Shown here in pieces: positions 45,001 through 57,699 of a stretch of 57,699 nt of DNA. Source of the stretch: Bacteroides fragilis (GTDB lineage: Bacteria > Pseudomonadota > Alphaproteobacteria > Rs-D84); the NCBI GenBank assembly GCA_963630775.1, contig CAVGNU010000006.1:1-57699 (forward strand), in the 5' to 3' direction. Position numbers: made by a program. The first letter of the stretch is position 1. Each line of letters begins with the position of its first letter.

Positions 45001-48000
45001 AACTGTTTGCCGTATTTGAAAAATAAGTCAGTTGTTATTCATCAATTCGCGCTTTAACATACGCACATTCTGCGTCATATCGTCAATCAGGCGTTGCACG
45101 CGGTTATAGTCCAACACGCGGCATGGCGCATTTGGAAAATCATTTTCAAAAAATGGCACAACCGACACCCCCAGCGCGTTTGCAATTTGGCACATGCGCC
45201 ACACAGACACGCGATTTGCCCCAGATTCGTACTTTTGAATTTGTTGTGGCGTGATACCGGTGCGTCGCCCCAGTTCTTGTTGTGATACGCCCATAAATTC
45301 ACGTGCGCGCCGCATAAATTCGCCCGCGCAGCGGTTAAATTCTTGTTCGGCGAATGTCTTTGCAATTCCAACCATCGGTATTCCTTTTGTGCGTTTATAC
45401 AACAAAAAACCACCAGAATTTTTTCAGGTGGTTGGAGGTTAAGAACTACTCTACCGATATAGTGTGATTTATTTATGTATATCACCACCCTCCAACCCAT
45501 GGTTGGAGTTTTTCGTCATCACGGACGCGGTAGTCGGAGTTCTTACACCCCGCAACAGCAACACACCATTGCACAAACATTATATGGTTTTTGTGCCGCA
45601 AAAACAATAAAAAAACGCCGCCGGTGTTGCCCGGCGGTGTTTCCGAATGCCCTGAAAGGAAGGAAAGGAGAAAAAGAAATGGGCATTCTAAACTGTTAAA
45701 AGGGTTGGGGCCCAGAGTCCAGAGGAGAGAGAATGTAGGAGGGAGTCTGAATCCCTGAACCCCGCGTCGTTGGGGTTGCCCCCTTTGACGAATCGAAATG
45801 TAATACAATTTTTGTTATTTGTCAAGAATATTTGTCAAAAAATTTTTTAGACAATTTTTATAGGTGTTTTTTCATGGCGGGATTTATTGCCTAACTTGTT
45901 GATATTCCTAGGAAAAGGCACTTGTTGCGACCGCGGGGTGCTGGGCATAAAATCACTGTACAGGTTCACAATAACTGGCACAAAACCACAGGAGAATGAT
46001 ATGACACACGAAGATGTATGGCGCGCAATAGAACGTTTCGCCGATGAACACGGCATGTCTTGTTCCGGATTGGCCCGATGCAGCGGTCTGGATCCGACCA
46101 CATTTAACCGCAGCAAACGCTGGTCGCGCGAGGGGCAGCCACGCTGGCCATCAACCAACAGTATTTCAAAAATACTGTCGTCCACGGGTGCGAATATCGC
46201 CGATTTTACCAAGTTTATTGATTCGCCTGCACGTTCACGCGAATAATTGCATAAATCTGATAGTGCCGCGCACGTGGTGTTGCGCGGTATTTTTTGTGGA
46301 CAATCGCGCGGTGTTCGTTTATGCTGAACGTATGTTAAATGGCATCAGAATATATTCCACAGATACCGTGTGGCGTCGCATATTGTCTGATTTGAATGCG
46401 ACGGTGCTGGATTCGCCCGATGTGACCGCGGTGGATTTTGATGCGTTGAATGTGCCAGCGCCCGCCACCGTCATGGAATTAAAGGCAGCATTATTGGCGG
46501 CAATGGATAATTCAAATGTTATTCGCAATGTTTTTGGACGCGATGTATCGCTGCCACGTCTGCAATGCCAGATTGTCGTCCTGTTGGCCCAGACGGGCGG
46601 AATGACCGCGGCACAGTTAAAGGTTGCATTGGGCTATTCCCCGAATGCTGCCACGCATACGGTTGATACGGCGATATATCAACTGCGCCGGACATTTGGA
46701 CGTGAACTGATTCAAAATAACAATGGTGTGTATAAAATTGGCCGGATACAAACTGATTTCGTTTGATAAAATACCCAGTACCCAAACATACGCATTGGAT
46801 ATGGTGGCGTCGGGCGCGGCGCGCGATCATACCATCGTCATGGCCGAGGCACAATCCGCCGGTCGTGGTCGTCATCGTCGTACGTGGGTGTCGCACCATG
46901 GTAATTTGTATGCCAGTTTTATTTTCAACGCCCCTGAACGCGATCCACGCCTGTCATATATGGTGGCGGTTGCAATCGCAGAAACGATTCTATCATTTGG
47001 CATAATACCCGCAATAAAATGGCCTAATGATATTTTGATTGATGGGAAAAAGGTTTGTGGTGTCTTGATTGAATACGCCGGCGCGTTTGTAATTGTTGGC
47101 ATCGGCATCAACATTAAATCCAATCCAACGGTTGCAGAAAACCTGACAACCAAATTGGAAAACTATGCCGATGTGCCAAAGGGCGAATTATTAAATCGCC
47201 TGATGCGCAATCTGGACAAATGGATGAACACGGATTTTGCAACCGTGCGTGCGCGTTGGATGGAATTGGCAATCGCATTGCGCAAAATTGTAAAGTATCG
47301 CGCCCAAGACGTCGAATTGATTGAAATAAACGAAAATGGTGCGCTGGTTTTGCGCCGTGGTTCGGAATATCTGTTAGCGTATGGCGACGAAATCAGTATG
47401 AAATAAATGCCGGATTTCCGCGCGATTGCGCGTGTGATAAAAATACACACTTGACTTTTTATGCGATTTGTGATACTATATGGGGCATCAACAAGCAAGA
47501 TTATGTCCGCATCAGGCGGATTTTTTATTGCAATTTTTGACCGCGATTTTTCCATCGCGGTCTTTTTTATGCCAAAACACGGGGGACGCATATGGAATTA
47601 GAACTGATAACGAACGGCGCGCAAATGACGCGTGATGCATATACAATCGCACGCACTGTTTATGCCGAAACATCTGGCAAGTCATTACCATTGGTCGAAG
47701 CGTTCACATCAATGATTGCAAATATTGCGCGTGCCCGCGGCATCACACCGGCATCTGTTGTGGCGGATACCGGTTTATTCACGCATGACGCAAACACAGA
47801 AATTGATACAACGGGTCGCGCGTTTCAAATGTGCCTGCGCACCGCACAACGAATGTTGCGTGGTAATTTGATGGACGCGTCGCACGGTGCAACACGATTT
47901 CACGCGGCCAATCAAATGCCAGATTGGGCGGTGTCGCGTGGATACATTGCCGATATTGATGGTGTGCTGTTTTATCTGTAATCGTGTGGTGAAAAAATGC

Positions 48001-57000: not shown

Positions 57001-57699
57001 TATGATATCACGGGGGCGAAAATGACACAGGAAACAAACACACTCGGCGGAATAATTGCAACCCTGCGCGACAGTTGGTTTTTAATCGCCTTTATCGGCG
57101 GCCTGATTTATTGGGTTGCCCGCCAAGATTCATCGCTGGCGGATATTCAACGCGCCGATACTCGCATTACAACATTGGAAAATCGCACGACGATACTGGA
57201 AACAGGTATCGGACAATTACAGATAAAATTGGACACAATTCGCGACGATGTATCACTGATAAAAACCGCAGTGATAAAATAAAAACGGGGCAAACGCCCC
57301 GTTTCTTTATTAGCGGCAACCACCTGTTGCATTACCAATCAATTTGGAGATAGAAATATCTTTGTGCAGCAAGAAATCGTATTCGCAATTACCAGATTTG
57401 TAAGAACCTGTGCAAGCGGCCAATGTCAAAACGGCAAACAGTGCCAACATAACTTTTTTCATGGTTTCTCCTTTTTTCCAAAAGTTCACGGAAATTATAC
57501 AGGACCATATTCCCAAATGCAATACAAAAAACAGTAAAAAAACGGTTGACATCCCCCGCTATAAATTGTGAATCAAGACCACCCCCCCCCTGCGGGTACT
57601 CTTCCATAAGAGGAGAACTTGCTACGTTCTTGCCACGGCCTAAGTTCCCCTCCATTGGAGGGGTGTCCGCAGGACGGGGTGGTCGAGAGAGCGCGTAAT

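Follow-up and report, generated by a model that had tools for sequence, protein, structure and literature searches.

Does the block of phage head and packaging genes on contig CAVGNU010000006.1 (GenBank assembly GCA_963630775.1) encode a particle that its host still uses, or is it what is left of a dying prophage? The contig is placed in the alphaproteobacterial order Rs-D84 and was analysed over its entire 57,699 bp, which we refer to as the window. A first-pass annotation, made from the sequence alone, had described positions 47592-57282 as a tail-less, rearranged podovirus module without an integrase and had raised two possibilities: a domesticated capsid-forming element, either satellite-like or resembling a gene transfer agent (GTA), or pure decay. 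The open reading frames (ORFs) that it listed are all present where it placed them and belong to the families it proposed, as judged from profile or family matches for each ORF (Table 1). On balance we consider it probable that the block is a domesticated, GTA-like particle cluster derived from a podovirus, which is core and vertically inherited in Candidatus Enterousia and is defective in this strain.

Candidatus Enterousia belongs to the order Rs-D84, has genomes of less than 1 Mb and is supposed to depend on partner cells (PMC12306168). Phage genes go unmentioned in the paper describing the Rs-D84 genomes (PMC12306168), and our literature search found no paper tying Enterousia or Rs-D84 to a phage-derived element.

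Conservation, selection and descent of the cluster

The database holds 3,245 relatives of the capsid protein, the best 120 of which are 83-94% identical. Among the GTDB species-representative genomes a capsid relative is encoded on 456 stretches; the best 80 of these 456 are 82-99% identical, all come from uncultured gut Alphaproteobacteria, many of them named Candidatus Enterousia, and they make up the 80 species compared here. A further 33 long metagenome loci form a second comparison set. Two records that carry the cluster, L076 (CAZJGX010000005.1) and P0112, are labelled Muribaculaceae and are probably mis-binned Enterousia contigs.

The cluster adjoins birA with identical gene order in 80/80 species loci, and birA is syntenic at every locus where the left flank is covered. 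The same cluster order is found in 33/33 long metagenome loci. It begins with HTH81, a small winged-helix gene and birA, followed by the hydrolase, TM63 (kept at all loci), scaffold, H1-like, capsid and small76 genes, and continues with gp11, the gp12 nozzle, orf115, orf184 (where present) and terL-N. Three minus-strand genes (orf226, xre335 and dnaB) separate these from terL-C, portal, Bbp19 and TMcc86. The usual right neighbour is YraN/UPF0102, and in a close relative a sialic-acid/glycan biosynthesis cluster occupies the 10 kb past the right border. It had been noted at first that tail, small terminase (terS) and integrase genes immediately to the right would make this an ordinary prophage; instead, close relatives have YraN, a small Mtd_N protein and the sialic-acid/glycan cluster in that position, and neither a tail module nor terS nor an integrase.

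Reading frames are uninterrupted in 79/80 species for the capsid, 81/81 for the nozzle, 80/80 for terL-N, 76/76 for terL-C and 72/72 for the portal, and intact cluster genes are found in about 70-81 species apiece. The ratio of nonsynonymous to synonymous substitution (dN/dS; Nei-Gojobori method, NG86, pairs with dS of 0.05-1 only) is 0.027 for terL-N, 0.037 for portal, 0.058 for capsid, 0.083 for the nozzle, 0.085 for small76 and 0.136 for terL-C, with scaffold (0.225) and hydrolase (0.34) at the upper end of the cluster range. The value is 0.046 both for orf226 and for the 335-aa XRE regulator, which is 73-98% conserved. Host genes gave 0.070 (dnaB), 0.096 (trmA-like) and 0.107 (birA) for comparison. 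By mean pairwise amino acid distance the capsid (0.13) is better conserved than DnaB (0.16) or BirA (0.29), and the portal stands at 0.16. Distances for the cluster genes correlate with those for birA and dnaB (Spearman 0.37-0.83; birA against dnaB itself, 0.70).

Because the ORFs are intact, dN/dS is low and the genes co-diverge with host genes, the data indicate a vertically inherited, functional host locus. The same observations exclude both a recently spread prophage and neutral decay. Of the two possibilities first raised, domestication holds at the level of the clade, in which 80 species show intact frames, dN/dS of 0.03-0.34 and co-divergence. Pure decay does not hold: the comparison of dN/dS across relatives that the first-pass annotation had proposed shows no neutral decay of the clade.

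A K/A/P/V-rich H1-like ORF of 85-167 aa sits between scaffold and capsid in 71/71 loci, with a repeat number that differs among species and strains. It looks like an independent unit, with a promoter-like site and terminators of its own. The copy in the window, at 78 aa, is shorter than all 71 measured orthologues (85-167 aa; L004-L082).

A deletion allele in this strain

Over 6.8 kb, locus L001 and the window share 99.91% identity, and in L001 the tail genes are intact between gp11 and terL-N. They comprise the remainder of gp11, a 569-aa gp12 nozzle (phrog_376, 8e-81), orf115 and the 184-aa orf184, whose product is the T7 tail-fibre N-terminal domain alone (the fibre stub). The window matches its relatives up to 50872 and then again from 50861, with 12 bp shared. 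The intact sequence has two copies of this 12 bp direct repeat, CGCATCACCGCC, at a distance of 2,971 bp (L001 44-55 and 3015-3026). The comparison indicates that the window has lost 2,971 bp by a clean deletion between short direct repeats, which took the C-terminal half of gp11, the gp12 nozzle, orf115, the fibre stub and the start of terL-N. The gp11 of the window is left with 90 native residues and 2 out-of-frame codons past the junction, compared with 173-190 aa for full-length gp11 in relatives. Its terL-N is without the native N-terminal codons, the ribosome-binding site (RBS) and the conserved segment FxxFMDEWN...TTPTHHR; in L005 the native terL-N ORF begins upstream.

The first-pass annotation was accurate in giving about 90 aa of a gp11-like adaptor (the N-terminal part present is 92 aa) and in reporting that integrase, small terminase, gp12, internal core and full fibre genes are missing from the window. 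Its term 'tail-less' fits the window and not the element, since the loss is a recent 2,971 bp deletion in this strain lineage and relatives keep gp11, gp12, orf115 and usually the fibre stub.

The missing genes could instead be an artefact of this contig, which comes from a metagenome-type assembly; contigs in two other assemblies (GCA_963648225.1 and SRR13434604) terminate exactly at the junction. We think this very unlikely. A de Bruijn assembly would not collapse at a repeat as short as 12 bp, and independent assemblies show an identical junction: those of two further runs, SRR13434603 (L085) and SRR13434632 (L090), and another one at NCBI, GCA_963646255.1 (L092), with slightly different flanking single nucleotide polymorphisms (99.5% identity). 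The contigs that break at the junction are as expected from a mixture of both alleles. The intact allele is found in L001 (99.9% identity), L086, L088 and L089, and together with an identical capsid in JGI 3300001528, SRR19415688 and SRR19416393.

Taken together, these assemblies indicate that the deletion is real, recent and polymorphic. The window carries a defective allele, found alongside the intact one in the same gut communities. As predicted from its remaining genes, it would make at most unsealed, probably unfilled heads, and a non-producer of this kind may be favoured in the short term if particle production involves lysis. In a separate observation, orf184 is split by a frameshift in the otherwise intact strain L089 (SRR19416393, 4121-4674).

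A two-gene terminase and an embedded host block

The genes terL-N and terL-C are separated by the three minus-strand genes at 51399-54729. When concatenated, the two pieces of the large terminase (TerL) align colinearly, as one segment, over 95% of intact T7-like TerLs. The terL-N piece corresponds to residues 54-213 of T7 gp19, and the two cover adjacent parts of phrog_38 (positions 275-459 for terL-N and 468-713 for terL-C), with the split site just after ATPase motif III. Across 76-80 species no change is seen in the three ATPase motifs, namely Walker A (FRHSGKST), Walker B (DLIICDDVEVPN) and motif III (IGTPH), or in the three nuclease motifs, YWDPS, ETNG and HDDGLDA. As judged from these alignments, TerL is a conserved two-gene enzyme throughout the clade and is not simply broken. 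The terminase had been described as being in pieces; there are indeed two, and only the loss of the start of terL-N is specific to the window.

The dnaB gene in the spacer is of the cellular type: it scores 606 bits against NF006606 (cut-off 540) and passes TIGR00665 but fails phage_DnaB. Its ATG and that of terL-C share the sequence CATG on opposite strands. In L140 (IMGVR_UViG_3300039008_000341) TerL is split at the same place (...GTPHTENSIYY-stop, then M...LSGYKRLKIP) around a 335 nt non-coding spacer only, and no intron or known RNA was found in that spacer. The four more distant phage-type relatives checked (L152, L157, L166 and L169; capsid 57-61%) each encode TerL in one ORF. Deeper lineages (portal 68%) have dnaB, xre and orf226 at or near the TerL spacer but rearranged. 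We infer from these arrangements that TerL was split first and that the host block entered the spacer later. A split intein at the break was rejected by inference, the tails being only about 6 and 17 residues. The phrase 'split terminase' was not found in any paper in our literature search.

The remaining gene of the block, orf226, has 1,271 homologues, every one of them unnamed. It has no Pfam, PHROG or NCBIfam match, and its confident all-helical model has no fold match in the PDB.

Phage relatives and origin

The virion module is T7-type (Autographivirales-like), with a gp8 portal, gp9 scaffold, gp10 capsid, gp11, gp12, the gp17 N-terminal domain and a gp19-type TerL. The nearest true phages are the HTVC010P/Hodr-type pelagiphages (capsid 44%) and a human-gut fragment, MT838907.1 (capsid 62%). 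The pelagiphages and the uncultured relatives (OQ414635.1; MT838907.1; IMG/VR L141-L172) share with the cluster the capsid (44-62%), portal, Bbp19, scaffold, small76, gp11 and gp12 in the same internal order, which in the phages runs (terL-)portal-Bbp19-scaffold-capsid-small76-gp11-gp12; in them Bbp19 lies between portal and scaffold, and small76 follows the capsid as it does in the cluster. HTH81 matches the N-terminal domain of the CI/S24 repressor that these temperate relatives encode. They differ from the cluster in size (about 34-40 kb), in having a full-length repressor (HTH + S24; L149, L152) and in lacking an H1-like gene between scaffold and capsid (0/6 inspected). In Hodr, gp12 is followed at the internal-core position by large ORFs (783 and 1,247 aa) and then by a fibre-like gene, whereas the interval between nozzle and fibre stub in the cluster holds the 115-aa orf115 only. 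No homologue of the large ORFs of nine phage or phage-like relatives is present on the contig.

The gene order indicates that the cluster corresponds to the phage map cut open between Bbp19/TMcc86 and the scaffold region, minus the core, the fibre body and the early genes. The order had been called reversed at first. Scaffold and capsid do precede terminase and portal, but this is a circular permutation and not a scramble, and L140 (GC 30%, capsid 64% identical) has the same order: scaffold, an inserted gene, capsid, gp11, nozzle, short fibre, terL-N, terL-C and portal. L140 also lacks the core proteins. It differs in having no dnaB block in its TerL spacer and in carrying small host-like inserts (a TRL lipoprotein, a pilin-like protein and a membrane protein that replaces the H1-like gene).

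The 162-aa Mtd_N/gp53-like gene to the right of the element was considered as the missing fibre and rejected, as it is present in 3/33 loci. At L001 10430-10918 and L174 12339-12782, about 1.1 kb right of the cluster, this gene encodes a 147-162-aa protein with an Mtd_N (BPP-1 tropism determinant) N-terminal domain; the L001 copy has a gp53-like fibre C-terminus and adjoins the sialic-acid/glycan cluster. It may be a lineage-specific receptor-binding add-on.

Promoters, leaders and regulators

The sigma-70-type promoter pattern of the left operon has its sole match in the window upstream of the hydrolase, and TTGAC is present at the -35 position in 71/71 species. The hydrolase leader that follows contains at least two terminators in 68/71 species, with compensatory changes in the stems, and the hydrolase RBS lies downstream of both terminators. 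Its minimum free energy is -34.5 kcal/mol (z = -6.1). In all 71 loci the capsid leader, which follows the independently terminated H1-like gene, contains a terminator, and in 61 of them it contains two or more. A compensatory change is seen in 17/24 of its predicted pairs, and it contains a conserved 13 bp hairpin with a U-run and a second stem motif, the invariant GGCGC..GCAyAACC. An Rfam search of both leaders gave sub-threshold matches only (mmgR/suhB, 25 bits, and anti-hemB, 25 bits, for the hydrolase leader) and no family for the capsid leader, which is a candidate new cis-regulatory element.

The left operon resembles the PR'-tR'-lysis-structural gene arrangement of lambda, where Q allows read-through, in its constitutive-looking promoter, immediate terminators and lysis genes followed by head genes. 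In contrast to lambda, no Q-type antiterminator was found in the Enterousia cluster, where anti-termination is suggested by the arrangement. By this analogy, the late operon would be held off by termination and opened by an anti-termination or activation signal. The GTA cluster of Caulobacter is likewise terminator-rich and is controlled by the GafYZ regulators.

HTH81 shares 57-63% identity with the N-terminal domain of HTH+S24 repressors of 219-226 aa (L149, L152), which in the phage-type relatives are encoded divergently upstream of the portal and have the S24 residues (GESM/GDSM and Lys). HTH81 ends where the repressor linker begins, leaving a truncated, non-cleavable form that is 86% conserved across Enterousia (66 loci). 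Because HTH81 is the DNA-binding domain of a phage repressor, the domesticated region extends left of 47592. An HTH81 paralogue, about 60% identical, lies 40 kb from the cluster (5851-6093, plus strand) and adjoins a LysR regulator. The divergent 125-aa XRE protein is possibly a remnant of a repressor/Cro-type switch; it has tblastn matches in 10 loci only and is conserved in the closest species alone. The 23 nt palindrome in the intergenic region upstream of HTH81 may be an operator, and its pattern, TTGTC-N8-16-GACAA, has one further match in the window. At 600 nt (45405-46000) this region is unusually long for a genome so reduced, and a structured, G-rich stretch lies within it, as does a weak ylbH-leader-like match at 45606-45716 (26 bits against 50 needed).

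The small winged-helix gene is present at 69 loci among L003-L082. The C-terminal half of its predicted protein (pLDDT 86) matches OmpR/PhoB-type DNA-binding domains, and NCBI names its homologues winged helix-turn-helix. It was considered as a Q-type antiterminator (orf145) and rejected on account of its OmpR-type winged-helix fold. The 240-aa ORF annotated at this gene is an artefact.

Other features of the window

The features of the region are listed in Table 1. The remainder of the contig is ordinary chromosome (NrdD, ParC/GyrA-like, PriA, LysR, Ogt and tRNAs), in which a search for other phage genes found only the HTH81 paralogue. Excision or recombination sites sought around the dnaB block and the cluster were rejected, as only short, chance-level repeats were found there; the one notable pair, 47467-47488 and 54728-54749, consists of two similar -10 regions.

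Table 1. Positions of the cluster genes, regulatory elements and neighbouring genes in the window
Feature	Position	Strand	Evidence or remarks
XRE-family HTH protein, 125 aa	45028..45405	-	Pfam HTH_3 and repressor PHROGs; divergent from HTH81
Candidate operator TTGTCAAAAAATTTTTTAGACAA, 23-nt near-perfect palindrome	45832..45854	.	600-nt intergenic region upstream of HTH81
HTH81, 81-aa Cro/CI-type helix-turn-helix (HTH) protein	46001..46246	+	DNA-binding domain of CI/LexA-like repressor, without S24
Small winged-helix regulator, 139-151 aa	46311..46766	+	Between HTH81 and birA; AlphaFold and NCBI homologue names
birA, biotin-protein ligase, host housekeeping	46723..47406	+	Pfam BPL_LplA_LipB
Sigma-70-type promoter CTTGACT-N-TGnTAnnAT, left operon	47450..47479	+	Conserved
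Leader RNA, two tandem hairpin + U-run terminators (47505-47521, 47539-47562)	47484..47575	+	Ahead of hydrolase start codon
Cell-wall hydrolase (Hydrolase_2, endolysin-like)	47592..47981	+	PF07486, phrog_938
TM63, 63-aa membrane protein; holin candidate by position only	47997..48188	+	No family match
T7 gp9-type scaffold (capsid assembly) protein	48185..48847	+	PF05396, E = 9e-8
Histone H1/HC2-like protein, KKPAAKK repeats, K/A/P-rich	48956..49192	+	PF07382, NF038053
Structured leader of capsid operon, terminator hairpins	49195..49413	+	Includes conserved 13-bp hairpin 49237-49268
Major capsid protein, Phage_capsid_2	49414..50244	+	PF19821, E = 1e-68
small76, 76-aa small head-associated protein	50285..50515	+	phrog_18004
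gp11-type tail tubular protein A, truncated to 92 aa	50600..50878	+	phrog_394 / PF17212, N-terminal part
Deletion junction, single remaining copy of 12-bp repeat CGCATCACCGCC	50861..50872	.	
terL-N, TerL ATPase core (Walker A, Walker B, motif III)	50815/50902..51402	+	phrog_38
orf226, all-helical protein	51399..52079	-	Clade-specific
335-aa regulator, two XRE-type HTH domains followed by a C-terminal domain	52101..53108	-	HTH_3 matched twice
dnaB, cellular alphaproteobacterial-type replicative helicase	53179..54729	-	NF006606
terL-C, remaining TerL ATPase domain and RNaseH-like nuclease	54728..55573	+	PF17289, PF22530
T7 gp8-type portal	55592..56815	+	PF12236, E = 2e-82
Bbp19-like protein	56828..57025	+	PF25181
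TMcc86, 86-aa membrane/coiled-coil protein, final cluster gene	57022..57282	+	Conserved in 32/33 long metagenome loci
Bidirectional terminator hairpin, right border	57281..57306	.	

Discussion

The cluster shares several properties with the known GTAs and viriforms (RcGTA of Rhodobacter, the Caulobacter GTA, BaGTA of Bartonella, VSH-1 and FpGTA). These are chromosomal clusters of phage structural genes without integration or replication functions, inherited vertically under purifying selection across a clade, with lysis genes attached and no sequence-specific packaging factor recognised, and in both cases a terminator-rich cluster suggests anti-termination control. The cluster differs in its two-gene TerL, in the cellular dnaB and H1-like genes inside it and in the small genome (<1 Mb) of its host. 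RcGTA has an HK97-type siphovirus set, in contrast with the T7-type podovirus genes here, which points to an independent origin; this distinction comes from family matches (PF12236, PF05396, PF19821, PF17212, PF25675 and PF03906) and not from direct protein comparison, and no tail-tube or tape-measure family was matched by the cluster proteins. FpGTA of Faecalibacterium (2026) has been described as the first podovirus-like GTA-like element (PMC12946183); it belongs to a different phylum, the Firmicutes, and the two are set beside each other by description only. On the evidence of its genes, the Enterousia cluster probably encodes a working domesticated phage particle rather than being a dying prophage.

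We propose that the cluster goes back to the domestication of an ancestral, temperate podovirus that had a T7-type virion and whose closest relatives known are the HTVC010P/Hodr-type pelagiphages. This ancestor would have kept its lysis genes (hydrolase and TM63), a head set (scaffold, capsid, small76, portal and Bbp19), a tail hub (gp11, the gp12 nozzle, orf115 and the fibre N-terminal stub) and the packaging enzyme, and lost its integrase, replication genes, RNA polymerase, internal core proteins and any recognisable small terminase. The near-consensus promoter would fire into the two tandem terminators, so that lysis and structural genes are not expressed unless termination is overcome, under the control of host or local regulators (the truncated CI protein HTH81, the winged-helix protein and the XRE protein). 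Procapsids would then assemble on the portal, and TerL-N and TerL-C would act as a two-subunit motor that fills heads without a sequence-specific small terminase; for this reason the packaged DNA is proposed to be largely chromosomal. Finally, gp11 and gp12 would close the portal, and the hydrolase and TM63 would lyse the cell. The product would be a gene-transfer-agent-like particle that stems from a podovirus. More tentatively, the cluster may be an independently evolved podovirus GTA or DNA-packaging particle that is core to the whole order, with a two-subunit TerL and an interlocked dnaB, and the window allele may be a non-producer, or 'cheater', among producers.

Several observations weigh against a GTA-like particle that works in this way. 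Neither gp14-16-type ejection proteins nor a recognisable small terminase was found in the cluster or elsewhere in the 57.7 kb contig, and without ejection proteins DNA would have no evident route into a recipient. The fibre is only an N-terminal stub, which seems dispensable because it is undetected in about 40% of species, and the deletion allele shows that the cluster itself is dispensable in the short term. Packaging would also require that a TerL split in two works. The hydrolase leader, of about 90 nt with a conserved single-stranded 5' end (CAUAAACAGCAnAGAUU) followed by hairpins, could be a stand-alone small RNA rather than an attenuator. Lastly, there is no convincing promoter for terL-C and portal, and no conserved consensus; the region upstream is constrained by the overlapping dnaB codons.

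A less likely but serious alternative is that the cluster is domesticated and functional and that its product is a capsid, DNA-filled or empty, that does not transfer DNA. Purposes that could be named are a killing or adhesion particle acting on partner or competitor cells, a decoy or interference against related phages, and a nucleoid-related compartment (given the H1-like protein and dnaB). The missing ejection proteins and receptor-binding fibre fit such a capsid, as do a host thought to depend on partner cells, the interleaving of host genes with the cluster and a capsid more conserved than DnaB, which would be unusual for a rarely expressed agent. However, the invariant ATPase and nuclease motifs of TerL and the conserved portal argue that packaging has been retained, lysis genes head the operon, and nothing points to any of the alternative functions in particular. 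We continue to favour the GTA-like particle.

That the cluster is a neutrally decaying remnant, kept only since the embedded essential genes dnaB and birA make deletions dangerous, is highly improbable. These genes do lie inside or against the cluster, and the window deletion and the frameshift in orf184 of L089 show that damage occurs. Linkage cannot, however, hold frames open, or dN/dS at 0.03-0.2, in 13 genes while BirA is only about 60% identical, nor would it keep catalytic motifs invariant. Decay is contradicted for the clade and is true only of the future of this deleted copy.

We give hardly any credence to an ordinary T7-like temperate prophage, recently acquired or cryptic, that happens to be common in these bacteria. 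Every structural gene has phage homologues, phage-type relatives with a CI-like repressor exist, and pieces of about 10 kb are filed as proviruses in IMG/VR, but the insertion context and gene order are identical in all 80 species, divergence scales with that of host genes, and essential host genes lie inside the cluster. The cluster and its flanks contain no integrase, replication or early genes and no att-like repeats, and its presence does not vary among strains, as that of an inducible prophage would. The IMG/VR entries (L093-L139) are pieces of the Enterousia host locus filed as viral genomes, many of them cut exactly at the capsid start and including the cellular dnaB. In IMG/VR and similar pipelines, such pieces give rise to false proviruses, and virome catalogues take up wrong host-gene calls from them.

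A capsid-forming phage satellite (cf-PICI-like) with tails supplied by a helper phage, which the first-pass annotation had suggested from a window with head and packaging genes and neither tail genes nor integrase, is scarcely tenable, because the intact element supplies gp11, gp12 and a fibre stub itself, lacks an integrase, a primase/replication module and a small terminase, and is inherited vertically at one locus.

Genomes of less than 1 Mb shed nearly everything dispensable, yet all the Enterousia species examined keep about 10 kb of T7-type virion genes. As these genes are selected as strongly as DnaB in so small a genome, the data suggest that a phage-derived particle is important to these abundant uncultured gut symbionts. 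The conserved two-gene TerL is a natural experiment on how far a packaging ATPase tolerates splitting, and the costs and benefits of making particles could be studied in nature through the coexisting intact and deleted alleles. If the particle is GTA-like, it would represent a new, independent origin of a GTA, from a podovirus, in the Alphaproteobacteria, and would let genes be exchanged within a lineage that one would otherwise expect to be isolated genetically.

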